Positions 2,344 to 55,938 of a stretch of 64,000 nt of DNA are shown here, in pieces. The position numbers and the translations under genes are program-made. The notes under the pieces are model-generated. The model saw only the letters and a program-made list of their open reading frames with translations. It had not been told where the DNA came from and made no database searches. Source of the stretch: a virus; IMG/VR virus record IMGVR_UViG_3300021138_000002, positions 1 to 64,000 of that record; one strand, given 5' to 3'. Positions within the stretch are counted from its first letter, which is position 1, and every line of letters begins with the position of its first letter.

Positions 2344-2586
2344 ATGCCAAAAGTCTTGTTTCATCAGTTGCTCATGGGTGATGTTGAAGATCCATATCTA
2401 TATGCGGCCTTTCCCATCTCGGACTGGCAAAAAACCGAACACGGACAGTGGTGCATGCAACATGCCATTGGCGAGCCTGAATTTTTATGCATACCTGATC
2501 CACATACCATGGGCTATCGGGTGCGTATCACCGGCGAGCTGTCCGAACTTGACATAACTTTTCTCAAACTAAAGTGGGGCCAATGA
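2344..2586 (+). CDS. Hypothetical protein
   Basis: 80-aa ORF directly after the promoter; ATGA overlap with the epimerase. Confidence 0.75.
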   Translation: MPKVLFHQLLMGDVEDPYLYAAFPISDWQKTEHGQWCMQHAIGEPEFLCIPDPHTMGYRVRITGELSELDITFLKLKWGQ

Positions 2587-3560
2587 ACATATTAGTAACC
2601 GGTGGGCTGGGTTTTATCGGCCACAATGTGGTAAATCTCCTAGAAGCTCAAGGACACACAGTCATCGTCACAGATAGCCAGACCACGTATGGCATAATAC
2701 CAAAGACCGAACTGGACGCTTTGATTGCAGAACGTAGGCAATATATCACCACAGACAGAATCTATCGTGTTGACATTGCCGATCAGACCAGTATGAGCTG
2801 GATGTTACGCAAACACTCGATCGACACTGTGGTACACTTGGCCAGCTTTCCCAGACAAAAGGTAGTAAATGCCAATCCTACCCTGGGCAGTCATACCATG
2901 AGCGAAGGTCTGCTGAGCTTGTTAGAAGCCGGCCGAGATCAAGTTAAAAAATTCGTATATGTATCAAGTTCCATGGTGTACGGTGATTTTCGAGAAGAAG
3001 CGTTTGACGGCATTGCCGAAACAGCCCAGTGTGATCCAATCGGACAGTACGGTATCATGAAATTGGCCGGTGAGTGGTTGGTCAAAGATTATGCCAGACG
3101 TACCGGTATGACCTACACCATATTGCGTCCCAGTGCTGTGTATGGACCCAGAGATGTGGAAGATCGTGTGGTTTCAAAGTTTTTACTCGCAGCCATGCGT
3201 GGAGGAACCATACAGGTCAACGGGTCAGATGAATATTTGGATTTTACCTATGTGGATGATGCCGCACAAGGCATAGCTCAGGCCACAGTCAGTAATAAAA
3301 CCAACAATCGCACATATAATATTACTAGAGGACTCAGTCGTAGTCTAGCCGAAGCAGCCGAACTGGCTGTTACTGTTGTGGGCAGTGGAACCATACAAAT
3401 AAATCCTAGAGATTGCCAGTTCCCCCGACGCGGTCAGTTAAATACTTCACAGGCTCGACACGATTTTGATTTTAAACCCACAACTGACATAGAAAAAGGA
3501 TTTGAAAATTACTTCAACTGGCTTGTTCAGTCACAATATTGGAAGAGGAGCAATTATTAA
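2583..3560 (+). CDS. NAD-dependent nucleotide-sugar epimerase/dehydratase (extended SDR)
   Basis: MNILVTGGLGFIG Rossmann motif, VSSSMVYG, YGIMK (YxxxK), LRPSAVYGP, DFTYVDD. Confidence 0.93.
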   Translation: MNILVTGGLGFIGHNVVNLLEAQGHTVIVTDSQTTYGIIPKTELDALIAERRQYITTDRIYRVDIADQTSMSWMLRKHSIDTVVHLASFPRQKVVNANPTLGSHTMSEGLLSLLEAGRDQVKKFVYVSSSMVYGDFREEAFDGIAETAQCDPIGQYGIMKLAGEWLVKDYARRTGMTYTILRPSAVYGPRDVEDRVVSKFLLAAMRGGTIQVNGSDEYLDFTYVDDAAQGIAQATVSNKTNNRTYNITRGLSRSLAEAAELAVTVVGSGTIQINPRDCQFPRRGQLNTSQARHDFDFKPTTDIEKGFENYFNWLVQSQYWKRSNY

Positions 3561-4152
3561 AGTGATATCGTTTCATATTACTGATCCCTCCAGTTTTTCC
3601 ACAATTTGGGCAAACAACTAATTGTTGAGGACCAGGTGGATTTTTACGAGGACCTCGCGGCCCTTTTAATTTGTCTCTGCGAGCAGCGGCCTCAGGACCA
3701 TAGATTTCTTCGTAAGTTTTACCAGCATGAATATAGGATTGTTTTTTATATTTTGCTAACATTGTTTGTCTTTGTTTTTCGTTAGCTTCAGACGTTCTTA
3801 CTTTGCCTTTATTGTGAGTATTACCCTTGAGAGCGATTTTACTTGCCTCAGAAAGTATTTGATATTGTTTACTTGTAATTGTTCTTTGTTGATTAGAGCT
3901 TACCATAGCAAAAGCAGAAAATGCGTGATATAATTTTTTTTGATCAATAGATTTAGGTAACATCTTGGTTAGTAACCAATGGCATATAAAATGTTCTCTA
4001 GCGGTGAGATTAACCAGATTGTCAGCGTCATTTGTACCTCCTAATGATTTAGGGATAATATGATGCCGTTCAAAATACCCAACAGTTAATCTTGCTTTTG
4101 CTCGATTAACTATGTTATAATAGCAGTTAGTATACTTATTTTGTAAATACAT
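3514..4152 (-). mobile_element. Free-standing HNH homing endonuclease gene
   Basis: ERHHIIPKSLGGTNDADNLVNLTAREHFICH HNH motif, C-terminal CPNCGK...HFNNC, AT-rich, antiparallel between epimerase and aminotransferase, TAAATA at 4158-4163 (- strand). Confidence 0.88.
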
Positions 4153-4188
4153 AATGTTATTTATCTACTATTCCGTTTATTGGTACCT

Positions 4189-5274
4189 ATGACATCTACC
4201 GGCCTTACAATTCCTTTTACCGGAATAAAAAAACAGTATAGCGCCATTCGCAACGAAATCCTAGATGCGACCGATGAAGTGTTGCGATCCGGGCAACTCA
4301 TGAATGGCAACTACACAGCCGAATTTGAAAATTGGCTGGCTCGCCGTAATCGAGTCAAGTATGCTGTGACCTGTCACTCGGGCACACAGGCCTTGGAAAT
4401 CATAGCTGAATGGCAACTGTCACGACACAGCATGCCCAATCCACCCAGAGTTTTGATACCCAGCATGACTTATGTGGCCACTGCCAATGCGTTTGCTAGA
4501 GCCGGCTACGAAGTTGTGTTGTTGGATACCAACTACTATGGTCTGGCCGATTACAAGAAAATGGATACTGACATCAGCTATCAGGTCGAGATACTGGTAG
4601 GCATGTATGGCTCGGCCCTGGGTGCAGATCACCCTCGTGCTTCAGAAACATTTGAGGACGCCGCACAACACTGGCTCAGCAACAACAGTGCTCGGTCACC
4701 GTTATCGGCAGCAGCTGCCATCAGTTTTGATCCTATGAAAAATCTTGGCAACTACGGCAACGGTGGTGCTGTTGTAACCGACAACGTGAACTTGTTGGAG
4801 TTTGCTCGCGGCTGGAGAGACAACGGCAAACCCAATCACGATTGCTTTGGTACCAACAGTCGTATGAGTGAAGTGGATTGTGCCCAATTGTTGGTTAAAA
4901 CTCGACATATTGATGCCTGGCAAAAGCGTCGCAGTGTGATAGTACGCTATTGGATGGATCGGCTACGAGGATCTGGTATCCGTAGCCTAATAGATGACAG
5001 TAATTATGCCAGTCATGCCTATCATAAATTTGTGATCGAAACCGACAGTAGAGATCGATTGCAACAACATCTCAAACTGCACAAGATCGAAACACGCATA
5101 CATTACGAACAACCGGTACACGAGTTGCCGGCCTATCAGCAATATTCGGGACCGGATATACTGAGTGGTGCCAGTGCCCTAAGTCGACGCTGTTTGAGCC
5201 TGCCCCTGTATCCTGAACTGACTGACTTGGAAGTGGAATATATCATTGATCAGGTGTTAGATTTTGGCGGATAA
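4189..5274 (+). CDS. DegT/DnrJ/EryC1/StrS family PLP-dependent sugar aminotransferase
   Basis: SGTQALE, TYVATANA, EDAAQ, SFDPMKNLGNYGNGGAVVT (PLP lysine), NSRMSE, LSLPLYPEL. Start 4189 or 4180. Confidence 0.93.
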   Translation: MTSTGLTIPFTGIKKQYSAIRNEILDATDEVLRSGQLMNGNYTAEFENWLARRNRVKYAVTCHSGTQALEIIAEWQLSRHSMPNPPRVLIPSMTYVATANAFARAGYEVVLLDTNYYGLADYKKMDTDISYQVEILVGMYGSALGADHPRASETFEDAAQHWLSNNSARSPLSAAAAISFDPMKNLGNYGNGGAVVTDNVNLLEFARGWRDNGKPNHDCFGTNSRMSEVDCAQLLVKTRHIDAWQKRRSVIVRYWMDRLRGSGIRSLIDDSNYASHAYHKFVIETDSRDRLQQHLKLHKIETRIHYEQPVHELPAYQQYSGPDILSGASALSRRCLSLPLYPELTDLEVEYIIDQVLDFGG

Positions 5275-6134
5275 TCTTTAGATTTCCAATCATATACAGC
5301 CAATGAAATATCACGAGTATTGTTGGGAAAACTGTCTTGATTCAGAATTGGTAAATCATAGCATCTAAAAATTTTAGCTATTTGCCAAGAAATCCAAGCT
5401 TCTTCGGGTAAGGTTAATTTTTCAATTTTACTATTTTTCCCAGACATAATGTCATCAAAAATCTGTCGAGATCTAAGTTCAATGGTTATCCCTTGATTGA
5501 GTCTAAGAAATTCTTGGTGCACCACAGAAATCTGTTGAGTCGGATAAAAATTTAAGCCAAGGAATTTTGACATAGAATTAAGTTCAACACACAAAGTTCT
5601 GAGGTCAAAAAATGCCCTAAATGGAAAGTTATGCCACTTGGGTATAGTTGGATCAAAATCAATATACATGCCCAATCCATGTTCGTATGAATCAAACATC
5701 GAATAAAAATAATTCCGCAACAAGGATCTTGGATAGTCTATTTTTATTCCAAAATCTTTAATTAACGTATCTAAAAATTTATCAGCTTTTGGTAACTTTT
5801 TTAATTTGTTAATAGTGTCTTTTTCCAAAGTCTCAAGATCAAACACCTGATCTCCAGCACGATAAAAACTGTTTATAACTGCTATCAACATGTCCTCATG
5901 GTCAAGGACTATCCTTACTACTACATCATCACTATTAAATGGTATTTGAAAATGCGACCAATGATGTGCCTGTATGTATTTTTGATATGTCGGATCGTGC
6001 TCTTTTAAATGACAGGCTCCTACTTCATTAAAGAGAGGTTTTGTAAGATCATAATGATTTTGATATATAAAAACATTGGCCAACAATTCTAAATAATTCC
6101 CATGTAGCCCACCAAAAAAATCAATTTTGTGCAT
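5250..6134 (-). CDS. Hypothetical protein, AT-rich; N-terminal IDFFGGLHGNYL Gly-rich loop
   Basis: 294-aa ORF overlapping the stop of the upstream gene. Confidence 0.75.
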   Translation of the reverse strand: MHKIDFFGGLHGNYLELLANVFIYQNHYDLTKPLFNEVGACHLKEHDPTYQKYIQAHHWSHFQIPFNSDDVVVRIVLDHEDMLIAVINSFYRAGDQVFDLETLEKDTINKLKKLPKADKFLDTLIKDFGIKIDYPRSLLRNYFYSMFDSYEHGLGMYIDFDPTIPKWHNFPFRAFFDLRTLCVELNSMSKFLGLNFYPTQQISVVHQEFLRLNQGITIELRSRQIFDDIMSGKNSKIEKLTLPEEAWISWQIAKIFRCYDLPILNQDSFPNNTRDISLAVYDWKSKDYPPKSNT

Positions 6135-7728
6135 TGATTAGATTCCTTTTTATAAAAGCATAGCTGGCCAACCAATCCCAGTCGTAAGATTTTTTAAGTG
6201 CGTCAAAATCTCCACCGACCGCTTCGTAGTATTCCACAGCATCCTCTGCACCGTAGATACTCCATTGCCCATTGGGAATGCCCCTGGACACTGTGAGCCA
6301 TTTGTTCAGTCGATACTGACTTTCCACATCTGTTTGTCCACGCAGTTTGATGCATTCACGGAACGCAGTCCTCCAGGCCATCCAAGGTGTGTTGCAGTAT
6401 TCGGCCGTGCCACTTAAAATAGGCACCACTTCGTGAGCACTATCTAAAGTAAAGTCCAAGCCCACTCCGGGATTGTTCAATACCAAGTTCCGGTTGTAGG
6501 CAATCATGGCCTGGTGACCGTATGTCAAGCCGTTGATCGGATTGCGTGCATGGAAGATATAGTGCTTGGGTTCTTGTAGTCTATCTGGTTGCCATGACCA
6601 ATCAAAGTCGGGATTGACACGCAACTTAGCAAACACAGCGAAGAACCAAGGAGTAGTACTGAGCTCGGCTGCGGCTCGATAGGCGGCCACACGACCCTTT
6701 ACACCCGAACTTCGATGTATGCGATTTGGAATACTCACATGAGGCAATTGTAGATAATTGTATTCAGCACCAGGTTCGCCATTGTCAATAAACACAATGT
6801 CCAGCACTTGATCGTAGGCAAGATTGTTATGTGTTTTGTCTATGTAAGGATAATCATACAGTTGTGTTTTGATTGAATTTTTGGCTTCTCTCGGTACCAG
6901 CACAGTGCTGGCACCTGTACTGAGTGGCATCACTGTTTTCATTTGTGTACGCCAGAGGTTCATGGCCGGAACCACTCGTTCGCCGATTGCCCCGGTGTTG
7001 CACACAAACTGTACCACTGGATCTCGAAACTCATGAGCCCAGACTGCAGCAACCTGGGTGTCATGTTCGTGATACACTATCGGCACTGGCTGTCTTGAAA
7101 CTGAGACGTTTTCCACAAAGTGTATGGTGTCAAACCACTCGAGCAGTTTGATATCACGGGCTTTTTCCAAGAAACTGGGCACATGTACATAAAATGTATC
7201 ACCAAACTTTTGTTCGTCGCTGGCAAACACATGTAGCATGTTGGCTTGCCATTCACTGGGGTGCCAGGTAAAGTCAAAGCCGGTATAATCACATACACTG
7301 CTTATGATCCACACATACTCATCCTGTACCCGACTCAATATTCTTTTCAGTGTGCCTAGATAATCACCGATATATCTGGTTTGGTAATCGCAATCGATAT
7401 CAAGGCCATTACCGTGATCGATGCCCACAACAGGTACCGATTTGATCCGTGGCAGTTGACCATGGGCGTAATTGGTCGCTGTGCTGCCTGTCTTAGGCAC
7501 CAAAGCAGTTCCACCGTGCTCTTGCCATTGACTGGGCCACACATGAGTTTGGTCAGCTTCCCATGGCACGGGTTCCCATAAAAAATCGTGACCGGTGTAG
7601 TCGGTTAAATAGTTTACCCACCAAAAATATCTAGTACGACTCAACTGTTTTGCGTGTTCAATATCCTGCGCCGCTTGCTCATGAGCAAACAGATTGGGTT
7701 TGTTTCCAGAATAAAATATATCAAACAT
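6121..7728 (-). CDS. Glycosyltransferase-like (GT-A) repeat protein; paralog of 23085..24011, lacking DxD
   Basis: C-terminal GVKGRVAAYRAAAELSTT, ARNPINGLTYG and AWRTAFRECIKL match the 308-aa protein; internal DF.W.P repeats. Confidence 0.65.
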   Translation of the reverse strand: MFDIFYSGNKPNLFAHEQAAQDIEHAKQLSRTRYFWWVNYLTDYTGHDFLWEPVPWEADQTHVWPSQWQEHGGTALVPKTGSTATNYAHGQLPRIKSVPVVGIDHGNGLDIDCDYQTRYIGDYLGTLKRILSRVQDEYVWIISSVCDYTGFDFTWHPSEWQANMLHVFASDEQKFGDTFYVHVPSFLEKARDIKLLEWFDTIHFVENVSVSRQPVPIVYHEHDTQVAAVWAHEFRDPVVQFVCNTGAIGERVVPAMNLWRTQMKTVMPLSTGASTVLVPREAKNSIKTQLYDYPYIDKTHNNLAYDQVLDIVFIDNGEPGAEYNYLQLPHVSIPNRIHRSSGVKGRVAAYRAAAELSTTPWFFAVFAKLRVNPDFDWSWQPDRLQEPKHYIFHARNPINGLTYGHQAMIAYNRNLVLNNPGVGLDFTLDSAHEVVPILSGTAEYCNTPWMAWRTAFRECIKLRGQTDVESQYRLNKWLTVSRGIPNGQWSIYGAEDAVEYYEAVGGDFDALKKSYDWDWLASYAFIKRNLINAQN

Positions 7729-8809
7729 GATTAGAATAGATGAAATTTATTGTAACACATTTTTACCCCTAGTGCAAGACAAATCTTCGCACGGGCTACA
7801 TTGGTTTGACCCATTTGGCAGTGTGCGTTTTGAAGACTTGTGTAATGTTCCGCCTGTTGATAATAACAAGAATTCAGTTCGTTATTTGTTTTGGGATCAG
7901 GAACCATTGCATCAGGAAACTGTGGATCAAACTCTGTCATCATTTGTCACGATGTTTCCACTGGGTACCAGACACATCATCACTAGCGAACACAACAGCG
8001 ATCAGGTTGAACATGTGAAAAATACTTATGGGTTTGTGCCTCATTACTACTTCTTTCATGGCTGGGCTGCCTTGGATTGGTATCGCGGATACGACCGTAG
8101 TTTTTTAATGCCTGCACCCAACGATCGTAAAATTACCGCTACGTTTATCAGTCCCAATCGCATAGTGGCCGGACAAAGAAATCACAGATTGTTGATGTTC
8201 TATCACATACTCAAAAATCAAATGCTGGACAACTATATCAGTTTTCCTGCTATATGTCCGGCCGAGGGAATAGCTGTACGTGATGCTGTCAAGAGTTTAA
8301 CTGACACATACCCTGACATCGAATCTGTGTATGCCGACAAAAATTTACATCTGCCCCTGGAGTTCGAAGGAGAATCTGGTGCTCCTATGCACAGTTTTCA
8401 ACTGAGTCTATTCACACAGTGTGCCAGCAGTTTGCTGTACCTAGTAAACGAAACAGTGGCCGCAGGACGCAGGCATCACCTAACCGAAAAAACATTCAAA
8501 CCTATTTGTTTACGCATGCCGTTTGTGTTGGTCGGCACGCAAGGCAGTCTGGAATATCTACGCAGTTACGGGTTTAAAACATTTAACTCGCTTTGGGATG
8601 AAAGTTACGATCTTGAAACCGACGATGTTATTCGATTGGAAAAAATAGCCGGTTTACTCAAGGAATTAAACAGTCTCAACACAGCAGAAAAAAATTCTTT
8701 GTTTCACAGGGCCGAGCAAATATGCCAACACAATTACGATCATTTTTATGGTGGCGGGTTTGAATCTGTTCTATGGACCGAACTGACACAAATGATCAAA
8801 GAATTTTAA
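7727..8809 (+). CDS. Putative glycosyltransferase with GT10-like 'TEK' motif
   Basis: LVNETV...LTEKTFKPICLRMPFVLVG...GFKTFNSLWDESYD; paralogous to 15047..16015 and 20520..21692. Confidence 0.6.
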   Translation: MIRIDEIYCNTFLPLVQDKSSHGLHWFDPFGSVRFEDLCNVPPVDNNKNSVRYLFWDQEPLHQETVDQTLSSFVTMFPLGTRHIITSEHNSDQVEHVKNTYGFVPHYYFFHGWAALDWYRGYDRSFLMPAPNDRKITATFISPNRIVAGQRNHRLLMFYHILKNQMLDNYISFPAICPAEGIAVRDAVKSLTDTYPDIESVYADKNLHLPLEFEGESGAPMHSFQLSLFTQCASSLLYLVNETVAAGRRHHLTEKTFKPICLRMPFVLVGTQGSLEYLRSYGFKTFNSLWDESYDLETDDVIRLEKIAGLLKELNSLNTAEKNSLFHRAEQICQHNYDHFYGGGFESVLWTELTQMIKEF

Positions 8810-8828
8810 TATCGACATATCAACCCAT

Positions 8829-8834
8829 TAAATA
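8829..8834 (+). promoter_or_regulatory. TAAATA late-promoter-like motif 4 nt before the amidinotransferase ATG
   Basis: ttaaataactcATG; no SD sequence. Confidence 0.5.
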
Positions 8835-8838
8835 ACTC

Positions 8839-9858
8839 ATGATAAACGCATATACCAGCTGGCAACCATTGGAAGAAGTCATAGTAGGGCGTGCATACAC
8901 ACCTGACTATTTTGATTTTATTGAAAACGCACAAGTGCGTAATCAATTGCAACAGATCTTGGTTGAGACCGAAGAAGATCTTGACAATCTACAAAAGACA
9001 ATCGAAACTTACGGTGCTCGAGTACGACGTCCTGATCTGATTGACAAACATCGTTTTCAAGATTTACAAATCAACAGCAACGGTGCTCCATTGCCACCAT
9101 TGACACCGAGAGACTGGCAGATCACCCTGGGACAAAAGTTATTGCGGGTGTTGGCCATCCAAGAACTCGATACCATCTGTGCCGACTATGCCGATCAGGT
9201 CATAAACCCACACCGCAGTGCTTGGGACCCGGACTGCATATTAAATGGAGCCAGTGCCAGTTGTATCGTGCGAGTAGGTCAAGACGTGTTCTTCGACAAC
9301 AGCGATTATCTTCGACCCGAGCAAACCAGATGGATAGTGGACAATGTGTTAGGGCCTGAATATCGGATTCACGAAGCCATAACAGACGGACACGGCGATG
9401 CTGTATTTGCCATACTCAAGCCTGGTGTGATACTGTCAAGCAAACACGACATGCACTTGCACCTGGCTCAAGACTTTCCCGGCTGGGAAGTTTTAAAAAT
9501 CTGGGACTCAAGTATCTGGGCTGCCATGGAAGTGGGCAAGTTCAAATGGGAAGCCAATCCTGGAGCCTGGTATGTGCAGGGCCAGACACCCACACCCGAA
9601 TTTACTGCCTTTGTGGACACCTATTTAAACAAGTGGACCGGCTTTGTGGCCGAAACGGTGTTTGATGTCAACTGCCTGGTATTAGACGAAGAAAATGTTA
9701 TCTTCAGTGCCTACAACCGAGATGTTTTTGATTTTTGCAAGCGTCATAGGATCAATCCAATCATATGCGAACTGCGTCACAGCTACTTCTGGGACGGTGG
9801 CATCAGTTGTTGCACCCAGGATCTGCGTAGGCGTGGCGGGCTAGAAACTTATCTATGA
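8839..9858 (+). CDS. Amidinotransferase (glycine/inosamine-phosphate amidinotransferase, pentein fold)
   Basis: SWQPLEEVIVGR, PRD, GHGDA, FDVNCLV, WDGGISCCTQDLRR with the catalytic Cys. Confidence 0.88.
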   Translation: MINAYTSWQPLEEVIVGRAYTPDYFDFIENAQVRNQLQQILVETEEDLDNLQKTIETYGARVRRPDLIDKHRFQDLQINSNGAPLPPLTPRDWQITLGQKLLRVLAIQELDTICADYADQVINPHRSAWDPDCILNGASASCIVRVGQDVFFDNSDYLRPEQTRWIVDNVLGPEYRIHEAITDGHGDAVFAILKPGVILSSKHDMHLHLAQDFPGWEVLKIWDSSIWAAMEVGKFKWEANPGAWYVQGQTPTPEFTAFVDTYLNKWTGFVAETVFDVNCLVLDEENVIFSAYNRDVFDFCKRHRINPIICELRHSYFWDGGISCCTQDLRRRGGLETYL

Positions 9859-12595: not shown

Positions 12596-12693
12596 TTGTA
12601 TATAAAAGGGTCTCTTTTACGCAGTTCTTTGAGTTTTTTACGATAGCGTATTTCCAATCTAATACGATCAATTATGTGTTTAATCCATTTCAT
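12592..12693 (-). CDS. 33-aa basic peptide MKWIKHIIDRIRLEIRYRKKLKELRKRDPFIYK, not in the ORF track
   Basis: Fills the gap exactly, with ATGA overlaps at both ends. Confidence 0.75.
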   Translation of the reverse strand: MKWIKHIIDRIRLEIRYRKKLKELRKRDPFIYK

Positions 12694-18475: not shown

Positions 18476-19811
18476 ACCAATCTTTCAAGTTAGGGAATGT
18501 TGCAACAAAATTTTTACCGCGTCTTTGATCGTACTGGGCATAAAATTGACCAAAGTCGTTTAGCAACCGGTCATGATCAAAGGCCTCACTGTGTGGAGTT
18601 TTGACCACGTCCAAATAGTCTATTAGTCGTTGCACATGATTGCGTTCGTGTTCGTGCATCATGGAATCTTGACCCCATTGATCCAACCATTGTTGCAATC
18701 GATGTCGATGTTGATCACGCACATGCTCGGGCAAGACCAAGACGCTTTGGAAACTAGGGAAACGCAAGATGTTCAATGTAAAATTGGGAAACTCTGAACC
18801 GTATTCGTGTTTCCATCGCATAAACACAGTCAATAAATCCGGCAACGAATCCAAACACAAGGCATTTATGGTACACATAACGTGTAGGCCACGCAACTGA
18901 CCGCTGGTGATCAAGCGTGTCATGTTCTGTACCCATAACGAATAATCCAGTCCATCGCGTATGTATTCGGCCTGCGGCCCTACACTTTCCATACTGGTGT
19001 ATAGATCTAGCGGTATGTCTTGAGTCGCAGACAGCAGTCGGTCCAGATCCACTCCGGGGCCCAAATTGCTATTGATGGCCAATCTTGTTTGACTGCGTCC
19101 GGGATTGTCGCGGAACCAATCCAGCAATTTCCAGGTGTCACCGCTCATGAGTGGTTCACCACCAGTGATCCTTAGTTCTTGTAGTGTTTGGTGTAGGTCT
19201 GACTCCCACCACCGGAAGAATGCTTCCACGTACGGATTTGTTTCGCCAAAGCGGTATAGTTGACTATGATCGTGAGCATGAGTAAAGTGGCCACGCCCAT
19301 CGGACACCAGATTGACATAGGCACCGTGCTGTCGTATGTCGCGAACCCATGTGCTACTGAAAGCAGGGTTACAATAGCTACAAGCCAATTGGCAAGTACG
19401 GTCAAACGCGATTTCCAAGGTGCGTAGGTTGATGTCTTGATCTGCGGGTGTGTGGTATGCATGTGATAAATCCTCCAGGGTATAAATTTTACTCTTGTAC
19501 ACACGGTCACTGATGTTGTCACGTCCGATGTCTTCTATTTTCCAACAGTATTCGCAACCACTGGGTCGTTCGCCCTGTTGCATCTGTACCCGTTCGTGTT
19601 TTTTTCTTGGCGTGTTGTGCAAAGCACTGGGATTGGTTTTGATCGCTTCGGGATCAATCGCGTGCGGTAGCGGATGATGGCAACTGGTAGTCTGGCCGGA
19701 TCCCAACCATATGGTGGCATTGTACCATTTGGCAGCACAGAAGCTGGCACTTTTGGTATCCAACACCTGCTGACGGAATTCCAAATCTGTCAATGTGTTA
19801 GGCTTTGACAT
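18456..19811 (-). CDS. Radical SAM enzyme with N-terminal Twitch-like domain (type B); start reassigned to 19811
   Basis: CAAKW...SCHH...CEYC, then CQLACSYC, GGEP; AAGGA RBS before MSKPNT. Confidence 0.92.
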   Translation of the reverse strand: MSKPNTLTDLEFRQQVLDTKSASFCAAKWYNATIWLGSGQTTSCHHPLPHAIDPEAIKTNPSALHNTPRKKHERVQMQQGERPSGCEYCWKIEDIGRDNISDRVYKSKIYTLEDLSHAYHTPADQDINLRTLEIAFDRTCQLACSYCNPAFSSTWVRDIRQHGAYVNLVSDGRGHFTHAHDHSQLYRFGETNPYVEAFFRWWESDLHQTLQELRITGGEPLMSGDTWKLLDWFRDNPGRSQTRLAINSNLGPGVDLDRLLSATQDIPLDLYTSMESVGPQAEYIRDGLDYSLWVQNMTRLITSGQLRGLHVMCTINALCLDSLPDLLTVFMRWKHEYGSEFPNFTLNILRFPSFQSVLVLPEHVRDQHRHRLQQWLDQWGQDSMMHEHERNHVQRLIDYLDVVKTPHSEAFDHDRLLNDFGQFYAQYDQRRGKNFVATFPNLKDWYESIQL

Positions 19812-20523
19812 TTTGCGTTTCCTTGACAACAATATCGGCCCACAATTTTCCTGCTCGTGAATCAGGATGAATACCATCCTGTGCAAAAAAATCGCGATCT
19901 CTAGCCAGCTCAAAAATTCCATTCTTTGCAGTGTCGGCAAATATAAATTTGTCAAAATCAATTTGATTTACCAAGGCATCTAGACCTAGATTTTTAACAC
20001 TGGGGTACTCTTTTCCGTTTTCGAAATAGTTGTCATTCCAGTAATTCATAAAACTCATAAATCTATAATCGATATTTTTTGATTTCAACCATGCTTGTAA
20101 TTTCAACATGTTCAATAGGGACTCGAATACCAATTCTAACAATCCGCCAAATTTCACAATCGGTTTGCTTATGTCCGACATTGGAAAGACAGGATTATCT
20201 CCAACGCCACAGTGTCCGTAATGTATTCCCAATTCGTTTGTGTTTCTAAATTGCCAAAATTGTTGCCAGGTCAATTGATTGATTGGCCGGTCAATCCGAG
20301 TCAGTCCGCTCCACATTATCAATACCAAATCATAATCGTGTTTTATGCTGTTTACCATGGTAGAATCACATATCCATTGATTGCCTGCGGCATGACTGGC
20401 TATGTTTGTTATTGACCAATTGTCAGGCAGATGCTCGGGCCAATTTTTGCAGTCCGAATCAGCAGTAAAACTGCAACCGTTAATTAAAACTCGTTTGTTA
20501 CGATAGGATCCTGAATTGGTCAT
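19798..20523 (-). CDS. SGNH/GDSL-fold protein
   Basis: INGCSFT, NIASHAAGN, DGIHP. Confidence 0.75.
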   Translation of the reverse strand: MTNSGSYRNKRVLINGCSFTADSDCKNWPEHLPDNWSITNIASHAAGNQWICDSTMVNSIKHDYDLVLIMWSGLTRIDRPINQLTWQQFWQFRNTNELGIHYGHCGVGDNPVFPMSDISKPIVKFGGLLELVFESLLNMLKLQAWLKSKNIDYRFMSFMNYWNDNYFENGKEYPSVKNLGLDALVNQIDFDKFIFADTAKNGIFELARDRDFFAQDGIHPDSRAGKLWADIVVKETQNVKA

Positions 20524-21692
20524 TGATGTTTTATTAAAAAATTATGCAACTGATCTGAGAAATCGGCCGGACTTTGTTGAGCCAAGTCAGCATAGTGTTG
20601 TTGATTGTATTTACATATATTATAACACTCTGCAAGGAATTGGTCAAGATCTTGTTCACATAGATCTTCAACTATTTTGGCAATACGTTCAATGCGTGCT
20701 TGACTACATTCGATACTGTCAAAACTTTCATCTATGATTCCGTCAAAGGTTTGAAATCCCAAATTGCGTATGTCTCGATAAAAACCCTGATTGGCCACTG
20801 CTATCCAAGGATGCCCGATCGCGATAGGTTTCCAAATTTTTTCTGTCCTAAAACTGTAAGGATAGGTAAACACCGTTTCGGTTACCAGACTAAAATAGGT
20901 ATCAACATACGATTCAAGATTTAAATAAAGTTCACCCCATTCGTTATTGAACAAATTTGTTTTTACAAAACTGTTGTCAACTGCGTGACCGACGCGTTCT
21001 CGGTAACGATCAACTTCGTATTTGGCCGGCAAGTATTGTACCGGTCTATGTGCTGTGATCAAATTTTCACCGTGATGTATCAGTTGTATGTTTACCAACT
21101 CAGGATCAATGTCAAACCAGGGTCCAGAATTTGACTGCTGGATCAAACCTATACTCTGATCCAACAAAGACCATAAACTGTGATCCAGCAATCCGGTCAA
21201 TCTAAATTGTTCTAACAAATATTTTCTATGCGACCGTCCGCGACCATTTAAAAATAAAAATTTATAAGGCTTGTTGTGCTTGGTAAAAATTGTGTCGCTT
21301 TGAGCAATAGCCTGTTGGTTATGCTCACAATAATGGATTTTGGGCAAAAAGAATTCATGCTGTATATGTATCCACCGAGGATGCATGTCTCCGCCACTGA
21401 TCAACAGCACTTGACCTGACTGAATCAAATCAGCCAGCCCCCATCGCAGGCACATGGTCAACAGAGTCTCGCTACCTTCCTCGGGTATGCTCAACACTAT
21501 CTTTGCGCCAGCGTGTGCTAGATCTTTTATTAGAGCATTGTTTTCCACCACAGTCTGACGACAAACCACATAGATTGCATTTGTGTCACGGGTGGCTGTG
21601 CCAAGATTCCAAAATTCTTCGTCGATCCAGGCTTTCAAGCAATCACTTACTCCTGAATGAGTATCAACTATGAGTCTACGATTGCCTAGCAT
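20520..21692 (-). CDS. Putative glycosyltransferase with GT10-like 'TEK' motif
   Basis: KFLFLNGRGRSHR, FSLVTETVF...RTEKIWKPIAIGHPW...GFQTFDGIIDESFD. Start 21692 or 21719. Confidence 0.6.
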   Translation of the reverse strand: MLGNRRLIVDTHSGVSDCLKAWIDEEFWNLGTATRDTNAIYVVCRQTVVENNALIKDLAHAGAKIVLSIPEEGSETLLTMCLRWGLADLIQSGQVLLISGGDMHPRWIHIQHEFFLPKIHYCEHNQQAIAQSDTIFTKHNKPYKFLFLNGRGRSHRKYLLEQFRLTGLLDHSLWSLLDQSIGLIQQSNSGPWFDIDPELVNIQLIHHGENLITAHRPVQYLPAKYEVDRYRERVGHAVDNSFVKTNLFNNEWGELYLNLESYVDTYFSLVTETVFTYPYSFRTEKIWKPIAIGHPWIAVANQGFYRDIRNLGFQTFDGIIDESFDSIECSQARIERIAKIVEDLCEQDLDQFLAECYNICKYNQQHYADLAQQSPADFSDQLHNFLIKHQ

Positions 21693-23091
21693 GATACTCG
21701 CATTCATGCCACCAGGCACTCATTTCAGGAAATGTTTTTAAAAAATCAGTGTTGCGCCTGCGGTCGTGTTCGTTGAAAAATCTATAAAAGTCGGCTTTGT
21801 TTTGGTTCAGGTATTGAATATCCAACTGTTGTCCAGCACGCATCCAGGCAATGTCTCGATCCAGTCTTGCCAGTTCATAATCTTTGAATCCTTGGAATCT
21901 GGTTTTGGGAGTTTCCAACTGTTTCATCATCCAGACCCAGATCTGTTCCAATTGATCACAATAGCTTTCGGGTAAAAGTTGTAGACTTTGCCAAGCGGGC
22001 TGTCTGAGTATTGGAGTATCAAACCACACACGCTGATAGGTAGTACTATAAAGTTTCCTAAGTCCCAATATGCCAGCCATGAGACTGCCAAATCCGGTCA
22101 CCGAAAGATTGTTCATGGTCACGATAAATGTGACACTATTGCGTCCGGGTATCTCGGTCAGGAATTGATTGACTCGATCCCATAGCAAGTTGAAATCCAA
22201 GCCGTGTCTGACATATTCGGCCTGTGTGCCCCACGAGTCCAGACTCACATACTGCATAAAGTGTTCGATCTGTTCACCTTCGCACAACTGTTTTACATAG
22301 CTCTTGTACTTTTGCCACGAGCGTTCGTCTACACTGAAGTTTGACGTCACGTTCAAATGCAAGTTGGGCTTGGGGTTGGCCAACACATAATCAAACACTC
22401 GATAGGTGTTTTTGTCCAACAAAGGTTCACCACCGGTCATCCTGAAGTGTTTGAGTTCCGGATACAGAGTGGGCCACCATGACCAAAATGCTTCTACGTA
22501 GGGATTGTGTTCGCGGGCAGGAATAGGCCTATTACGACCGGTAAAATGACCAGGATCATTATGAGTACGGCTAGTAGGATATCCACCATGACTGTCCACT
22601 TCCTGTTGCCAGGTACTGCTAAACTGTGGACTACAATAACTGCAAGCAAGATTACAAACATGATTAAAATTAACTTCAACATAGCTAGGAACAACATCTT
22701 CGTCTCCAGTGGAATTTGCGATAACGTGATAGTCTTTGCTGGCCCAAGGTTCGCCCGACCTGTAATGACGATCACTCAGCTTGCCAGCGTCCTCCATGGT
22801 CCAACAGTAAGAGCATTCACCAGGACGCTCTTGTGTAAGCATAATCTTACGTTGAGTTTTTTTGTATGGTGTGTTATGCAGTGCAGATGGATTGTCAGCC
22901 AATAGTTCTGCTGGTATAGCATGCAAGGGCGGGTGATAACAACTGTTGTTAAGACCAGTAGGTAGGTGTAAACTGACCTGTTTCCATTTGGCTAGACAAA
23001 GTGCAGGCCCTAGCGCCTCTTTCATGTGTTCGGCACTGCTTAAAAATCGTGATTTGAAGTCGGTCGAAACTTCGTCGCCTTTGTTTACCAA
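21676..23091 (-). CDS. Radical SAM enzyme with N-terminal Twitch-like domain (type B)
   Basis: CLAKW...SCYHP...CSYC, then CNLACSYC, GGEP; TTG start with AGGAG upstream. Confidence 0.92.
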   Translation of the reverse strand: MVNKGDEVSTDFKSRFLSSAEHMKEALGPALCLAKWKQVSLHLPTGLNNSCYHPPLHAIPAELLADNPSALHNTPYKKTQRKIMLTQERPGECSYCWTMEDAGKLSDRHYRSGEPWASKDYHVIANSTGDEDVVPSYVEVNFNHVCNLACSYCSPQFSSTWQQEVDSHGGYPTSRTHNDPGHFTGRNRPIPAREHNPYVEAFWSWWPTLYPELKHFRMTGGEPLLDKNTYRVFDYVLANPKPNLHLNVTSNFSVDERSWQKYKSYVKQLCEGEQIEHFMQYVSLDSWGTQAEYVRHGLDFNLLWDRVNQFLTEIPGRNSVTFIVTMNNLSVTGFGSLMAGILGLRKLYSTTYQRVWFDTPILRQPAWQSLQLLPESYCDQLEQIWVWMMKQLETPKTRFQGFKDYELARLDRDIAWMRAGQQLDIQYLNQNKADFYRFFNEHDRRRNTDFLKTFPEMSAWWHECEYHARQS

Positions 23092-24011
23092 CCTTCTTGA
23101 CTCCTGATCACATCAATTTCTCTGGTCATGACGCCACGGTTGTGCCAGTTAGATCGATAGTGATGTTTGAAGAATCGGCTGGATTCAGCATCCATCACAG
23201 TTATTGGCAGATCCAGCTGTCGATGTAGGTCTTCGGCCACACGACCTGCTAGTATTTCAGGATTATGACCGTCTACGGTTTTGTACAGTTCGGCCAAGGC
23301 ATCAAAATCTTGTACCTGCTGATAATCCCATGCAGTCAACATGGTCATGTAAGTGCCCATCCTACTACCGGCGATGGCCCAGATACCGTGCTCGACATCG
23401 CGACCCACATTGTGCCATATAGTCAAATGATCGAGATTTCTTTGATGTACCTGTCGTTTGAAATCTGATAAAGAGGGTCTTGCTCCTTGATTGAGACACA
23501 TTTTTACACCTTCTCTGAATCCGGCACGCCAGGCATGGAATTCTGATCCGTTAGGGTATGTGGTTGAATAACAGTCGTGCATGGCCCAGTAAAGTGGATC
23601 AAAACAAAATTCCACTTGGGTTTCGGTCCGACCGTCGGTGGCTTCGTGTGTACGCATGTTGTTGGCAAATGTCTTGGTCCACGAACTTAAACCACCGTTG
23701 CCGTACATGAGTCCGTTGATATGATTTCTGGCACGCCAGCGGAACACAGCTGATTCCCATTGCTCATCCGGCAACTCCAGGGTAAGATTGAAAAAACGTT
23801 CGTCGGGCATGTTGTCGCCATCGATCAAGATGAATCGTTCGGTAGTGCTGGCCTCGGCTGCGGCCTTGTGTGCAGAATCGCTTCCTTTTACCCCGTCCAC
23901 ACGCTGTGCCCAAGGAATCATGTTGCGAATACGGACCCACGTTTCTTCTCGATCGGGCTCGTCGTAGGTGAGGTAAATGCAGTCTAAATCGGCTATATCA
24001 ATATGTTTCAC
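23085..24011 (-). CDS. Glycosyltransferase-like protein, GT-A fold
   Basis: YLTYDEP, RVDGVKGSDSAHKAAA, ILIDGDN (DxD), INGLMYGNGG, AWRAGFREGVKM. Confidence 0.7.
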   Translation of the reverse strand: MKHIDIADLDCIYLTYDEPDREETWVRIRNMIPWAQRVDGVKGSDSAHKAAAEASTTERFILIDGDNMPDERFFNLTLELPDEQWESAVFRWRARNHINGLMYGNGGLSSWTKTFANNMRTHEATDGRTETQVEFCFDPLYWAMHDCYSTTYPNGSEFHAWRAGFREGVKMCLNQGARPSLSDFKRQVHQRNLDHLTIWHNVGRDVEHGIWAIAGSRMGTYMTMLTAWDYQQVQDFDALAELYKTVDGHNPEILAGRVAEDLHRQLDLPITVMDAESSRFFKHHYRSNWHNRGVMTREIDVIRSQEGW

Positions 24012-24357
24012 GGTGTTTCACACTCCATTTGGTATTTGGTTGATCATGCTCTACTACCACACATACATTGTTAGGACTGCAGGTGATTCCTGAATCGGAC
24101 GGAACCAATTTGGAGATCAGTACAGGTGGTCGTATTTTTACGATTTTTCCGTCGACGATGCGTATGTTCCAGTCCGGTAAGGAGAACGTTGCAGCATCCA
24201 CTTCAATATAGTTACCTGGCAAGTCGTCTGCCGAATAACTTAGTGGTCGGCCTTGTTCGTCATAGTAGATACGATAACTGGGTTTTTTGACCGGAGACGG
24301 ATTGCCGAAAACTTCGGCCATGGCTGTTAAAAAATTTTCTGTAGTTTGGTCAAGCAT
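23998..24357 (-). CDS. Hypothetical protein
   Basis: 119-aa ORF overlapping both neighbours in the operon. Confidence 0.75.
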   Translation of the reverse strand: MLDQTTENFLTAMAEVFGNPSPVKKPSYRIYYDEQGRPLSYSADDLPGNYIEVDAATFSLPDWNIRIVDGKIVKIRPPVLISKLVPSDSGITCSPNNVCVVVEHDQPNTKWSVKHRETY

Positions 24358-25129
24358 TGATACGCCAATCTTTTATGTGATAGTGTATGGCACCCCATTG
24401 TGCCACAGTGTTTATTCTAAGACCCAAGTCGCCGAATTCCCATACCAATTCCTGTGTCCAATCGTCGGTCTGTGTTTTTAAAATGTGCTGTTTCATGTGT
24501 ACTATCGTGGGGCCCAATCCAGCCGGCAAAGTCACCTGTTCGGGGCCCATGATCACAGCGGCCATGGCATAGACCACATCAGTTGATGGCGATTCATCAG
24601 GCAGTTTGAGCAGTCTGCTGTAGTCGGCCCAGTGCTCGAATATGTTGCGAACAAGAGCAAAAAATTCTTGTGCTGTGCGACTTCGACGCCAGTAGGTGAT
24701 GGCATTGTAAACATCAGGTAGATTGTTGTCATCAAACAGGCGACGATAATATCTAGATACTGCTGGCTGATCATAGATGTCTCTACAGCCTTGGCTGATC
24801 ACAACATCTCGTAGTTCAAACAGGGTCCACCAATGATCGATTGGACCTGCTACTACCATGTCGGCTTCGAGCTTGATTGTTTGTCTGTAAGGTGTGGCAT
24901 CAAAACACTGCCAGTCGTTGGCATATCCGCCCAGATCGCCATGCGGCAAAGGAATCACATGATCAAATACTGGATCACTGCATCTACGCACAGTCAACGT
25001 AGCAATGTTAGCATCAGGATGCCAACGGCGAATAGATCGAGCCAGTTGGATGGCACAACTCAGGTAGTCCACATCGTCTGTGTCAATGGCCGGTATTAGA
25101 TAACCGCGTTCAGCAAGTACTGGCAACAA
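24350..25129 (-). CDS. Putative glycosyltransferase (GT8-like GT-A), ExD variant
   Basis: DYLSCAIQLARSIR, TPYRQTIKLEADM, PDVYNAITYW, STDVVYA, IVHMK; paralog of the next gene. Confidence 0.65.
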   Translation of the reverse strand: MLPVLAERGYLIPAIDTDDVDYLSCAIQLARSIRRWHPDANIATLTVRRCSDPVFDHVIPLPHGDLGGYANDWQCFDATPYRQTIKLEADMVVAGPIDHWWTLFELRDVVISQGCRDIYDQPAVSRYYRRLFDDNNLPDVYNAITYWRRSRTAQEFFALVRNIFEHWADYSRLLKLPDESPSTDVVYAMAAVIMGPEQVTLPAGLGPTIVHMKQHILKTQTDDWTQELVWEFGDLGLRINTVAQWGAIHYHIKDWRINA

Positions 25130-25913
25130 TGTCTCCTAGATGTCGTTTGCCCATGGCATGGAAATCTTGATTTATCGAAATCCATCTGGATTGTCCATGT
25201 CCGTTGGTGTAATCAACGCGGTATTGATCCTGACCAATTTGTGTCACACAGGGTGCCGGAGTCACCGTGGCCAACGACCACGGAATAACTGGCCAATCCA
25301 GCAGTTGTCCGTTCACCACAAGCTGTGCAATAGTGAGAGCATAGTCATTGCGATAGGTCGAAGGTGTGATACCATAAAGATTTCGATAGTGGCTCCAGTT
25401 GGTTTTTATCATTTGCATGGTGTCAAAGATCAATTCGGCCTGTCGGCTGCGATTGAAGTACATCACAGTGGCCCAGCTCATGGGCACGTGATATTGTCCA
25501 AATGTGTTGTTGGCCCGGAACGGCTCGGCTCCGGTAATGTCATGGGCTCGATCATGTGCTAGAAAATCTTGTCCGCTTTCAAACAATACCGACAACTGGT
25601 CTGATGCTACCACATAATCAGCATCCAGTACCAGAGTCTGATCCCACGGGCTTAACCGATAAGCATCCATGCGATTTTTATTGTACCAGGTCACACTGTC
25701 TTCAAAGTCTACGAAGTATCTGTGGTATTCGCTGTGCTTTTCAGTGCGTATGACTTGATCAAATTCGTAATGACCAGGTAAATCGGTTGCATCTGTAATT
25801 AGACATACCGGAAGATTCAAGTGCCTGTGTATGTTGCCAGCTGACCAAGCTGCCAGAGCCACATAGTCAATCAACTCATTGTTGTAGGCAAAGATAACAA
25901 TTCCAGAAGTCAT
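25110..25913 (-). CDS. Putative glycosyltransferase (GT8-like GT-A)
   Basis: DYVALA, SPWDQTLVLDADY (DxD), WATVMYF, YRNDYA, DFHAMGK. Confidence 0.7.
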   Translation of the reverse strand: MTSGIVIFAYNNELIDYVALAAWSAGNIHRHLNLPVCLITDATDLPGHYEFDQVIRTEKHSEYHRYFVDFEDSVTWYNKNRMDAYRLSPWDQTLVLDADYVVASDQLSVLFESGQDFLAHDRAHDITGAEPFRANNTFGQYHVPMSWATVMYFNRSRQAELIFDTMQMIKTNWSHYRNLYGITPSTYRNDYALTIAQLVVNGQLLDWPVIPWSLATVTPAPCVTQIGQDQYRVDYTNGHGQSRWISINQDFHAMGKRHLGDIVASTC

Positions 25914-26218
25914 CTGTTTTGGTTCAACCCTTCGTATTCGATTAACCAGGCGTTCATTTGTTCTTGCCAGCGTTGACTGGCCAACTCACGCAGTTCTTTG
26001 GGTACCACTCGCACTGGATTATGGTACAGGTCCAGGATCACCTGTGGCGTGTCAGGGTTGCAGACGTGCAACACAGTCAGCAGTTCGGGACCGGCCTGCC
26101 ACATGCCACCTGCGTGGGCAAAGGTCAATTTGGCCTGATATTTTTCTTGGAGAGTTTTTCGTGCTATTGCATGATCAAAACGGGCACGACCGTGAGCTAC
26201 AAGTTCATCAGTGTTCAT
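25910..26218 (-). CDS. Hypothetical protein, first gene of the - strand modification operon
   Basis: 102-aa ORF, ATGA overlap with the next gene, promoter directly upstream. Confidence 0.8.
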   Translation of the reverse strand: MNTDELVAHGRARFDHAIARKTLQEKYQAKLTFAHAGGMWQAGPELLTVLHVCNPDTPQVILDLYHNPVRVVPKELRELASQRWQEQMNAWLIEYEGLNQNR

Positions 26219-55923: not shown

Positions 55924-55938
55924 CTGTTATAAATCTTG

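Follow-up and report, generated by a model that had tools for sequence, protein, structure and literature searches.

What might a lake phage build with a run of sugar enzymes, seven glycosyltransferase (GT)-like proteins, and five radical S-adenosylmethionine (SAM) enzymes, all encoded next to its tail fibers? The question is raised by an almost gapless gene island of ~24 kb (positions 2344-26218) that adjoins the tail-fiber genes in the first 64 kb (the window, meaning the whole stretch of DNA analyzed here) of a 145,096-bp IMG/VR viral contig (G000), which CheckV places at 42% complete. Phage-encoded glycan clusters are known and seldom understood, and to our knowledge no characterized pathway combines seven GT-like genes, five radical SAM enzymes, an amidinotransferase, and a carbamoyltransferase. 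The island very probably encodes a soluble, cytoplasmic system for glycan assembly and for tailoring and transfer. Its acceptor may well be a virion protein, with surface proteins favored, a proposal that we hold at slightly less than even confidence; the explanation taken whole, in which a glycan island acts on a phage-made acceptor and virion surface proteins are the favored targets, seems to us evenly poised.

The core genes of the contig are T4-like, with gp46 50% identical to that of the Pseudomonas jumbo phage PA5oct and 43 to 46% identical to those of Atu_ph07 and Phosso, and near-identical DNA is found in freshwater and lake metagenomes of many studies from 2012 to 2022, none of the listed sequencing runs that contain it being recorded as RNA. 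Scans of IMG/VR with two cluster proteins recovered 160 related loci, including contigs of 317 to 357 kb. The source is an uncultured freshwater T4-like jumbo phage, and a clade of 330- to 350-kb freshwater phages carries the island. In the 52 full-flank loci, core genes occur together in 45 to 52 and in the same order: the carbamoyltransferase, the protein encoded at 12690-13772, and four of the radical SAM enzymes are present in all 52, the fifth radical SAM enzyme (21676-23091) in 51, and the amidinotransferase, which one subclade lacks, in 48. The order 26281-25910-25110-24350-23998-23085-21676-20520-18456-17207-16002-13762-12690-10531-8839-7727-6121-4180-2574-2344 (genes given by their first coordinates) is repeated in dozens of loci, including complete genomes of 337 to 353 kb, and in the related loci the block always abuts fiber, giant-adhesin, and baseplate genes. 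Starts and stops overlap almost throughout the long minus-strand operon that runs from 26218 to 10531, and given this overlap and the conserved order, the arrangement is more than chance. The SGNH-like genes and the GT gene at 15047-16015 are accessory among the 52 loci, and such a pattern, with a conserved core and with tailoring and GT genes that vary between close relatives, would resemble that of a diversifying surface-glycan locus. An earlier note, made from the letters of this DNA, had proposed a phage-encoded sugar-tailoring and transfer cluster beside the fiber and baseplate genes and had tied the proposal to co-occurrence of the genes in relatives; they do co-occur, in synteny, and this part of the proposal is supported.

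Two enzymes are of families that could supply an amino-deoxy sugar. The plus-strand gene at 2574-3560 encodes an NAD-dependent nucleoside diphosphate (NDP)-sugar epimerase/4,6-dehydratase of the short-chain dehydrogenase/reductase (SDR) superfamily (Pfam Epimerase, 1.3e-44; GDP_Man_Dehyd, 6e-36), and its top NCBIfam match, dTDP-glucose 4,6-dehydratase at 127 bits, is under the equivalog cut-off. On the same strand, the gene at 4180-5274 encodes a pyridoxal phosphate-dependent sugar aminotransferase of the DegT/DnrJ/EryC1/StrS family (PF01041, 2.4e-55, 188.7 bits against a cut-off of 19.8), with PseC as its best NCBIfam match at 132 bits against a cut-off of 423.5.

Two more are of decorating families. 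The plus-strand gene at 8839-9858, the most conserved of the block (median ortholog identity, 83%), encodes an amidinotransferase of the AGAT/StrB1/HsvA/SxtG family; the protein has no Pfam match, and a profile built from 25 orthologs matches AGAT (2.1e-23), HsvA (9.7e-19), SxtG (6.3e-18), and StrB1 (2.7e-16) in the PDB, in three stretches that span the whole protein of this pentein-fold family. Its catalytic Cys (C324, in GGISC) and His (H185, in GHGD) align with those of AGAT and are invariant in the 25 orthologs. The minus-strand gene at 10531-11997 encodes a NodU/CmcH/TobZ-type carbamoyltransferase with both expected domains (Carbam_trans_N, 7e-37, 128 bits against a cut-off of 24; Carbam_trans_C, 3.2e-46, 157 bits against a cut-off of 27), and its 125 bits against the NodU equivalog NF041651, for which the cut-off is 1000, mark it as a member of the family and not a NodU ortholog. 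NodU/TobZ-type enzymes are O-carbamoyltransferases of sugars and other small molecules.

Further candidate tailoring proteins are accessory. Three resemble SGNH proteins: that at 9855-10547 (plus strand; DUF6071, 2.4e-4, under the cut-off) has GCS in place of GDS and few relatives; that at 11948-12595 (minus strand; Lipase_GDSL_2, 9.2e-6, under the cut-off) is SGNH/GDSL hydrolase-like with a GDS block; and that at 19798-20523 (minus strand; DUF6071, 1.7e-3) has GCS and DGIHP blocks and is present in 2 to 5 of the 52 full-flank loci. All three calls are weak, with Pfam scores below gathering and partial motifs, a clean GDS being found only in 11948-12595. The minus-strand gene at 5250-6134, absent from related loci and without a Pfam or PHROG match, offers a weak sulfotransferase-like or DUF2972-like lead, in that the structural neighbors of its poor ESM Atlas model (predicted local distance difference test [pLDDT] score, 0.56) are sulfotransferases at template modeling scores of 0.38 to 0.45.

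The seven GT-like genes comprise a GT-A pair, a GT-B trio, and a GT8-like pair. None of the seven has a Pfam match; ortholog alignments were built for these families, and two families were modeled with AlphaFold2 (AF2). The larger GT-A-like protein (6121-7728, minus strand) has 535 amino acids, several GT-A-like domains as judged from AF2, Foldseek, and VIA, and three FDFxWHPD-type repeats. Its model (pLDDT, 88) finds the GT-A enzymes R699, ArnC, WrtF, and K4CP by Foldseek, and its BFVD neighbors are viral GTs. Residues 222-444 align with B4GALNT1 at a VIA Z of 11.6 (root mean square deviation [rmsd], 2.9; 139 aligned) and with WrtF at a Z of ~10.5, and the C-terminal domain (residues 222/307-444) scores Z 10 to 11.6 against B4GALNT1, WrtF, SpsA, and TarP, values similar to those given by nucleotidyltransferases of the same fold (IspD). 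Two-domain matches of residues 97-446 to K4CP and Mimivirus R699 suggest that the modeled protein contains further GT-A-like domains. There is no obvious DxD in the conserved C-terminal domain, which has invariant Asp residues in WQPD and GLDFT contexts, and a profile of this family gave no match in the PDB. The second GT-A-like protein (23085-24011, minus strand; 45 of the 52 loci) is a paralog of the C-terminal half of the first (BLASTP, 2.6e-13 to residues 309-515) and shares the common GT-A domain and a helical tail.

The plus-strand gene at 7727-8809 encodes a GT-B fold glycosyltransferase (AF2 pLDDT, 91.7) with an invariant HxTEK motif (H251, T253, E254, and K255). Among the Foldseek and VIA matches listed, the GT-B fold is found over residues 2-359 with Z up to 11.5, the sole listed match of another kind being a Tetrahymena respiratory mega-complex chain at Foldseek rank 27; the VIA scores are 11.5 for T4 BGT (rmsd, 4.6; 271 aligned), 10.8 for T4 AGT, and 10.4 for the Helicobacter pylori alpha1,3-fucosyltransferase. 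A profile of this family against the PDB matched only a sortase, at chance level, and this match was rejected. Two minus-strand paralogs complete the trio, one at 20520-21719 (BLASTP to 7727-8809, 1e-11; 47 of the 52 loci) and the accessory one at 15047-16015 (2e-12 to 7727-8809 and 2e-11 to 20520-21719; 6 to 26 of the 52). The remaining pair, minus-strand paralogs at 24350-25129 (with an E-A-D motif) and 25110-25913 (D-A-D), share a conserved [DE]-A-D and are candidate GT8-like GT-A proteins; their joint profile matched glycogenin alone, at E values of 0.29 to 0.85 and over the N terminus up to the DxD, and the GT8 assignment is weak.

All five radical SAM enzymes, each encoded on the minus strand, score above the 170-bit cut-off of NF033640 (N_Twi_rSAM, "twitch domain-containing radical SAM protein"), and in all five the Twitch domain is N-terminal: 13762-15060 (279.5 bits), 16002-17210 (341.0 bits), 17207-18475 (376.9 bits in a six-frame genome search, with SPASM and Radical_SAM Pfam matches), 18456-19811 (299.2 bits), and 21676-23091 (304.9 bits). 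The longest open reading frame (ORF) of the fourth extends to 19961, and the NF033640 match begins at residue 72 of this long 18456-19961 ORF; the start is likely the ATG at 19811. In each of the five, C-x17-C-x~45-52-CxxC lies N-terminal to CX3CX2C, the Twitch and CX3CX2C cysteines are invariant among 10 N_Twi paralogs, and a fully Cys-ligated auxiliary cluster would fit a redox role. Orthologs are 65 to 73% identical across relatives and only ~20 to 30% identical to their own paralogs, which argues that the five have distinct functions and are not recent copies. The enzyme classes named in the earlier note are thus all present by Pfam, NCBIfam, profiles, and folds, with five Twitch-type radical SAM enzymes as proposed and seven GT-like proteins where about seven had been counted. 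The GT folds hold up in AF2 and VIA for the GT-A and GT-B families, with weak evidence for the GT8-like pair; three SGNH genes were located, with the weak calls given above; and the amidinotransferase, likened to StrB1, belongs to that family and scores better against AGAT.

The array extends past the island. The contig encodes 13 N-terminal-Twitch radical SAM paralogs together with three canonical C-terminal-Twitch ones, and radical SAM genes lie further along the window at 55936-57453, 58472-59764, 61455-62498, and 62485-63798. Many of those on the contig are wedged between core genes (gp55, gp47, and gp46); between its genes 47 and 55, T4 carries alpha-gt. The complete relatives, a set of four records that are 95 to 100% complete, two of them with terminal repeats, give 11 to 17 search matches each to the N_Twi family, ~8 to 14 of them above the cut-off. 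A full-text literature search turned up no publication on what the N-terminal-Twitch family (NF033640) does or on the island; 12 radical SAM genes in a marine T4-like genome have been noted in passing (PMC5332604).

One radical SAM enzyme may have a partner protein. The minus-strand gene at 12690-13772 encodes a core protein of an unnamed, Pfam-less family (more than 7,400 clusters at 90% identity and 615 at 50%) that matches nothing in Pfam, the PDB (by profile), or the ESM Atlas, and it overlaps the stop of the radical SAM gene at 13762-15060 by 11 nt, to which it is translationally coupled. A natural fusion of a domain of this family with an N_Twi radical SAM enzyme (P0251) provides a Rosetta-stone link which suggests that the 12690-13772 protein works with a radical SAM enzyme. 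The fusion gene is located among Laminin_G_3 genes, which we read as fiber-like. Other family members (P0202, P0213, P0216, P0217, P0219, P0231, and P0253) are long forms of 712 to 775 amino acids, with an N-terminal extension of ~400 residues that has no match in Pfam or among the genes of this phage; one long form lies in a phage contig beside two radical SAM genes and an Asp/Asn hydroxylase-like gene.

Genome-wide absence searches covered five records, the contig and the four relatives of 95 to 100% completeness, and each search was positive in 9 to 14 of 14 control genomes. All five records lack the thymidylate synthase/dCMP hydroxymethylase family (PF00303) and tRNA-guanine transglycosylase (TGT)/DpdA, for which 10 and 14 of the 14 controls, respectively, were positive. 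They also lack a dehydroquinate (DHQ) synthase-type cyclitol synthase (PF01761; controls positive, inositol-phosphate synthase not having been searched for), a sugar-1-phosphate nucleotidyltransferase, the priming enzymes Bac_transf and Glycos_transf_4, and the flippase Polysacc_synt (Wzx). No transmembrane-like segment is predicted in any cluster protein, and the cluster contains no exporter or resistance gene. Without a sugar nucleotidyltransferase, the enzymes must draw on host NDP-sugars; combined with the missing priming transferase, Wzx, and transmembrane segments, this points to soluble enzymes that use host NDP-sugars and a cytoplasmic acceptor. The phage has no lipid-linked export pathway of its own and lacks the known ways into DNA hypermodification.

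We propose that the SDR and DegT enzymes would convert a host NDP-hexose to an NDP-4-keto-6-deoxy sugar and then to an amino-deoxy sugar, the families being clear and the substrate conjectural, and that the seven soluble GT-A and GT-B proteins, judged by their folds, could assemble an oligosaccharide. The carbamoyltransferase, the amidinotransferase, and the variable SGNH-like and sulfotransferase-like enzymes might then decorate it, and the five radical SAM enzymes, one of them paired with the 12690-13772 protein, would carry out hydrogen-atom abstraction (oxidation, epimerization, deoxygenation, or cross-linking) on the sugars or on the acceptor. The acceptor would most likely be a phage-made macromolecule inside the cell, with the adjacent Ser/Thr-rich protein, the fibers, and a 4,368-residue adhesin as candidates. 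The first of these (26281-27186, minus strand) is a 301-residue protein rich in Thr, Ser, Ala, and Gly (16, 15, 11, and 10%, respectively), syntenic in 22 loci and without a family match, and is put forward as an acceptor purely on inference. The last is a single 4,368-amino-acid ORF (29554-42660, minus strand) between the fiber genes and a baseplate wedge gene, with FG-GAP and CBM5/12 matches and piecewise identity of 44 to 63% in a complete relative (G003); it is probably a giant adhesin or fiber. We favor a virion acceptor because of the fixed position by the fiber genes, the Ser/Thr-rich neighbor, a late-type element at the amidinotransferase gene (see below), an accessory-gene turnover like that of a surface locus, the P0251 fusion among fiber-like genes, the absence of partners for membrane export or DNA modification, and a match in the virion proteome of cyanophage S-SCSM2R, in which the ORF266 amidinotransferase was detected (PMC12801897); ORF266 is 29% identical to that of the island.

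Promoter architecture bears on this choice. A sigma70-type promoter (TTTACT-N17-TATAAT; 26225-26253, minus strand; 10 of 12 positions matched in the scan) lies in the 62-nt gap ahead of the first gene of the long operon and heads it. Of 20 distinct relatives, 19 have the same -35/-10 layout, and as a rule a GC-rich terminator hairpin overlaps their -35 box; in this window the promoter is present and no clear hairpin is seen. A second sigma70-like promoter, TG-extended (TTGCAA-N17-TATACT; 2309-2337, plus strand), was found by consensus scan before the operon of the small ORF, SDR, and DegT genes, and TG-extended -10 boxes recur upstream of its orthologs in relatives, a consensus match alone being weak evidence. 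Scan totals for sigma70-like and terminator-like sites in the window are not above those of shuffles, so only intergenic sites conserved in relatives were used; apparent conservation upstream of 6121-7728 was discarded, because the divergently transcribed GT-B gene begins its coding sequence there. The window does not contain the exact T4 late promoter, TATAAATA. The shorter TAAATA is ~15-fold enriched in the 60 nt before gene starts (30 of 71 genome-wide occurrences) and sits 24 to 34 nt upstream of baseplate and fiber genes, with examples of the motif in the regions upstream of 27369, 46113, and 54936; it is thus likely the late promoter core of the lineage. The sequence aTTAAATA occurs just upstream of the amidinotransferase gene, and TAAATA is present there in 41 of 46 distinct relatives, with its distance and the preceding gene varying from one relative to another. 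We infer from these motifs that the main operon would be transcribed early by the host sigma70 polymerase and that the amidinotransferase gene also has a late-type element.

Several observations weigh against the virion-surface explanation. The long operon is under a conserved promoter of early type, usually with a terminator before the Ser/Thr-rich gene, which indicates that it is not cotranscribed with the structural genes. In structural comparison, the GT-B protein scores highest against the DNA-modifying T4 BGT and AGT, which tie with the fucosyltransferase and have no sequence relation to it. In the amidinotransferase, the position of AGAT Asp254 aligns with C142 (or a neighboring Ser) and not with Asp, so that its triad appears not to be canonical. 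Radical SAM arrays in Bdellovibrionota occur with Asp/Asn beta-hydroxylase-like oxygenases, which suggests that the radical SAM enzymes may act on protein or peptide. Lastly, the product, predicted to be an amino, guanidino, carbamoyl, and acyl sugar, and its acceptor are both putative.

The early-type promoter and the terminator keep alive the alternative that the enzymes act early on lipid-linked lipopolysaccharide, capsule, or other glycan intermediates of the host at the cytoplasmic face, remodeling the envelope so that superinfecting phages are shut out, grazers are evaded, or progeny adsorb less to debris, as has been proposed for the "LPS/cell-wall" gene clusters of large cyanomyoviruses. 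The analogous S-SCSM2R and P-SSM2 blocks, with GT, epimerase, DegT, radical SAM, and amidinotransferase genes, have been read in this way (PMC12801897), and the accessory-gene turnover is like that of O-antigen loci. However, the cluster encodes no membrane protein and the complete relatives have no priming transferase or Wzx, so that everything would depend on host machinery; the position of the island beside the fiber genes is fixed; and the amidinotransferase gene carries its late-type element. We consider envelope remodeling unlikely.

The recurring hydroxylase-like neighbors likewise keep alive a protein-directed role for the radical SAM enzymes. Most SPASM/Twitch radical SAM enzymes mature peptides or proteins, and weak secondary NCBIfam matches of those in the island are to peptide maturases. 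These enzymes, the 12690-13772 protein, the amidinotransferase, and the carbamoyltransferase could act on side chains of a phage fiber or adhesin, in the manner of ribosomally synthesized and posttranslationally modified peptide (RiPP) pathways, by cross-linking, epimerization, Lys/Orn amidination, or carbamoylation, with the GTs then adding sugars. The N_Twi arrays of Bdellovibrionota and of other phages, which co-occur with Asp/Asn beta-hydroxylase-family oxygenases and an amidinotransferase, are consistent with this, as are the P0251 fusion among its fiber-like genes, the use of amino acids and polyamines by AGAT-family enzymes, and the presence of HsvA among the profile matches. Yet no recognizable precursor peptide or RiPP recognition element (RRE) domain was found, the SDR, DegT, and seven GT-like genes indicate substantial sugar chemistry, and the carbamoyltransferase is of a type established for O-carbamoylation of sugars and small molecules; RiPP-like hypermodification of this kind is therefore rather improbable.

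The two least supported readings concern small molecules and DNA. The SDR, StrS/DegT, StrB1-family, TobZ-type, and Twitch radical SAM proteins echo the streptomycin, tobramycin, and butirosin pathways, and similar S-SCSM2R genes have been called "antibiotic synthesis genes" (PMC12801897), so that a free aminoglycoside-like or other small glycoside (an antibiotic, signal, or host inhibitor) might be made during infection. This is very unlikely, as the contig and its four near-complete relatives have no DHQ-synthase-type cyclitol synthase, the cluster has no exporter, resistance gene, or membrane protein, seven GT-like genes far exceed what known pseudo-oligosaccharide pathways need, and the radical SAM enzymes fall in NF033640 and not in BtrN-type families. 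The description "aminoglycoside-like" in the earlier note therefore survives only as an analogy of enzyme classes, and its comparison of the radical SAM enzymes to BtrN fails on the N-terminal Twitch domain and the family; its lean toward a non-DNA acceptor is strengthened by the genome-wide check of four relatives. Hypermodification of phage bases with a modified sugar against restriction or CRISPR, by a route other than 5-hydroxymethyl-pyrimidine or 7-deazaguanine, would suit a T4-like core, the top VIA matches of the GT-B model, and an early-type promoter such as T4 uses for its DNA-modification genes, but is likewise very unlikely given the missing PF00303 and TGT/DpdA genes, hhalign probabilities of 0.5% (BGT) and 0.1% (AGT), and Z scores tied with a fucosyltransferase, a likeness at the level of fold only.

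Returning to the virion-surface explanation, a bolder form of it is that the five N-Twitch radical SAM enzymes, one with its 12690-13772 partner, iteratively edit a virus-built oligosaccharide or its glycoprotein to yield a guanidino/carbamoyl, radical-tailored virion coat. This is doubtful as it stands; if true, such a coat would be viral surface hypermodification of a new class, and a very large enzyme family, one common to freshwater jumbo phages and predatory Bdellovibrionota, would gain its first function. Were the product identified, NF033640 and a Pfam-less family would each be given a function, new radical carbohydrate or protein chemistry could come to light, and it would become clear what abundant lake phages place on their surface, their host, or their DNA, with bearing on adsorption, defense evasion, and stability. 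Experimental access could come from two cultured phages, as Ralstonia phage RsoM2USA carries a mini-module and cyanophage S-SCSM2R an analogous block; these two handles, the promoter architecture, the 12690-radical SAM fusion, and the negative results for priming, flippase, and cyclitol genes are what is new here.

The remaining genes of the island are small or lie outside the pathway. Three conserved small proteins are encoded at 2344-2586 (plus strand; 80 amino acids, 11 related loci, ~45% identity), where the gene overlaps the SDR start by 13 nt and the product has no Pfam match; at 23998-24357 (minus strand; 119 amino acids, 56 related loci, no Pfam match); and at 25910-26218 (minus strand; 102 amino acids, 30 related loci, ~61% identity), which is the first gene of the long operon. 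Between the SDR and DegT genes lies a minus-strand HNH endonuclease gene (3514-4152; Pfam HNH, 1.4e-5) with a homolog in none of the 160 related loci, and its absence from relatives makes it look like a recent mobile insertion.

We note several further observations on the lineage. When the entire block was searched by megablast, none of 50,697 phage records matched, and a contig search with the window's own radical SAM protein returned no encoding record. The "moraphage" jumbo lineage (PMC12619734) was considered and set aside as a separate, non-T4 group. Contigs filed in metagenome-assembled genomes (MAGs) of Haliscomenobacter, Legionellales, Rickettsiales, Betaproteobacteria TMED41, and Verrucomicrobia TMED56 (L169-L174, L191, L218, and L220) carry the island or lineage core genes at 40 to 79% identity, and these are almost certainly misbinned phage contigs. 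In the complete relative G003, the right flank of the island is the same as here (fiber, 28766 protein, giant adhesin, and baseplate wedge), and the left flank (L253, G003:C1:203000-222400) has two TctC-family and one DctP-family solute-binding proteins, a nitronate monooxygenase-like protein, and a MoxR AAA+/VWA pair, with no further sugar genes. Expansions of TctC ("Bug") proteins are typical of Burkholderiales, and the TctC genes may hint at a Burkholderiales host. Just outside the window, the contig has a DUF1415/DUF6875-like gene (65912-66415), a homolog of which (L228:9755-10282) lies beside amidinotransferase and radical SAM genes in a Pseudobdellovibrionaceae island.

Comparison with known systems places the island among several partial likenesses. 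The cyanophage blocks of P-SSM2, S-SCSM1, and S-SCSM2R (ORF301-310; PMC12801897) also belong to T4-like phages and have GTs, NDP-sugar epimerases, DegT-like proteins, a radical SAM enzyme, and amidinotransferases, but they are analogous and not orthologous, the sole detectable homolog being one amidinotransferase at 29% identity; they have 2-oxoglutarate-dependent oxygenases and a single canonical radical SAM enzyme, and lack a carbamoyltransferase in the block and an N-Twitch array. The S-SCSM2R authors file the block under cell-wall modification and "antibiotic synthesis" (PMC12801897). Mycobacteriophage-encoded glycosyltransferases are described as glycosylating virions (Freeman et al. 2023, as cited in PMC12619734), and these systems and those of giant viruses and chloroviruses similarly have soluble virus GTs by structural genes and virion glycans without a host membrane pathway; the Che8 GT, the Megavirus PLOD-like GT, and Mimivirus R699 are among the structural neighbors of the GT-A model. 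They differ in lacking a radical SAM array, amidinotransferase, and carbamoyltransferase, and the evidence there is of virion glycans, whereas here it is of a position beside structural genes and of GT folds. Aminoglycoside pathways (StrE/StrS/StrB1, TobZ, and BtrN/BtrS) draw on the same enzyme superfamilies; in contrast to them, the island has seven GTs, has no cyclitol synthase, exporter, or resistance gene, and encodes radical SAM enzymes with the Twitch domain at the N terminus, where BtrN has it at the C terminus. T4 BGT (GT63) and AGT (GT72) share with 7727-8809 a compact GT-B fold and a T4-like phage background and give it its best VIA Z scores, but have no sequence-profile relation to it, and the hydroxymethylase that makes their substrate is absent from the complete relatives.

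The closest likenesses follow the radical SAM enzymes themselves. N_Twi radical SAM enzymes are rare in cultured phages (four records), and one of these, the Ralstonia jumbo phage RsoM2USA, has an 18456-type radical SAM enzyme (51% identical), two SGNH genes, and a carbamoyltransferase (44% identical) side by side, all annotated as hypothetical, the two homologs of 11948-12595 adjoining the carbamoyltransferase; the region lacks GTs, an amidinotransferase, and the other four radical SAM enzymes. In cellular genomes the family is concentrated in Bdellovibrionota, whose islands likewise have tandem N_Twi radical SAM genes with carbamoyltransferase, amidinotransferase, and GT-A homologs, and differ in adding Asp/Asn beta-hydroxylase-like and AsnB-like enzymes and in having no GT-B trio in the loci examined; Pfam searches of the neighbors there returned only Asp/Asn hydroxylase-like, AsnB, kinase, and PhoH matches, which do not reveal the product. 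As a family, NF033640 is defined by sequence only; here five nonredundant, individually conserved paralogs are interleaved with GTs.

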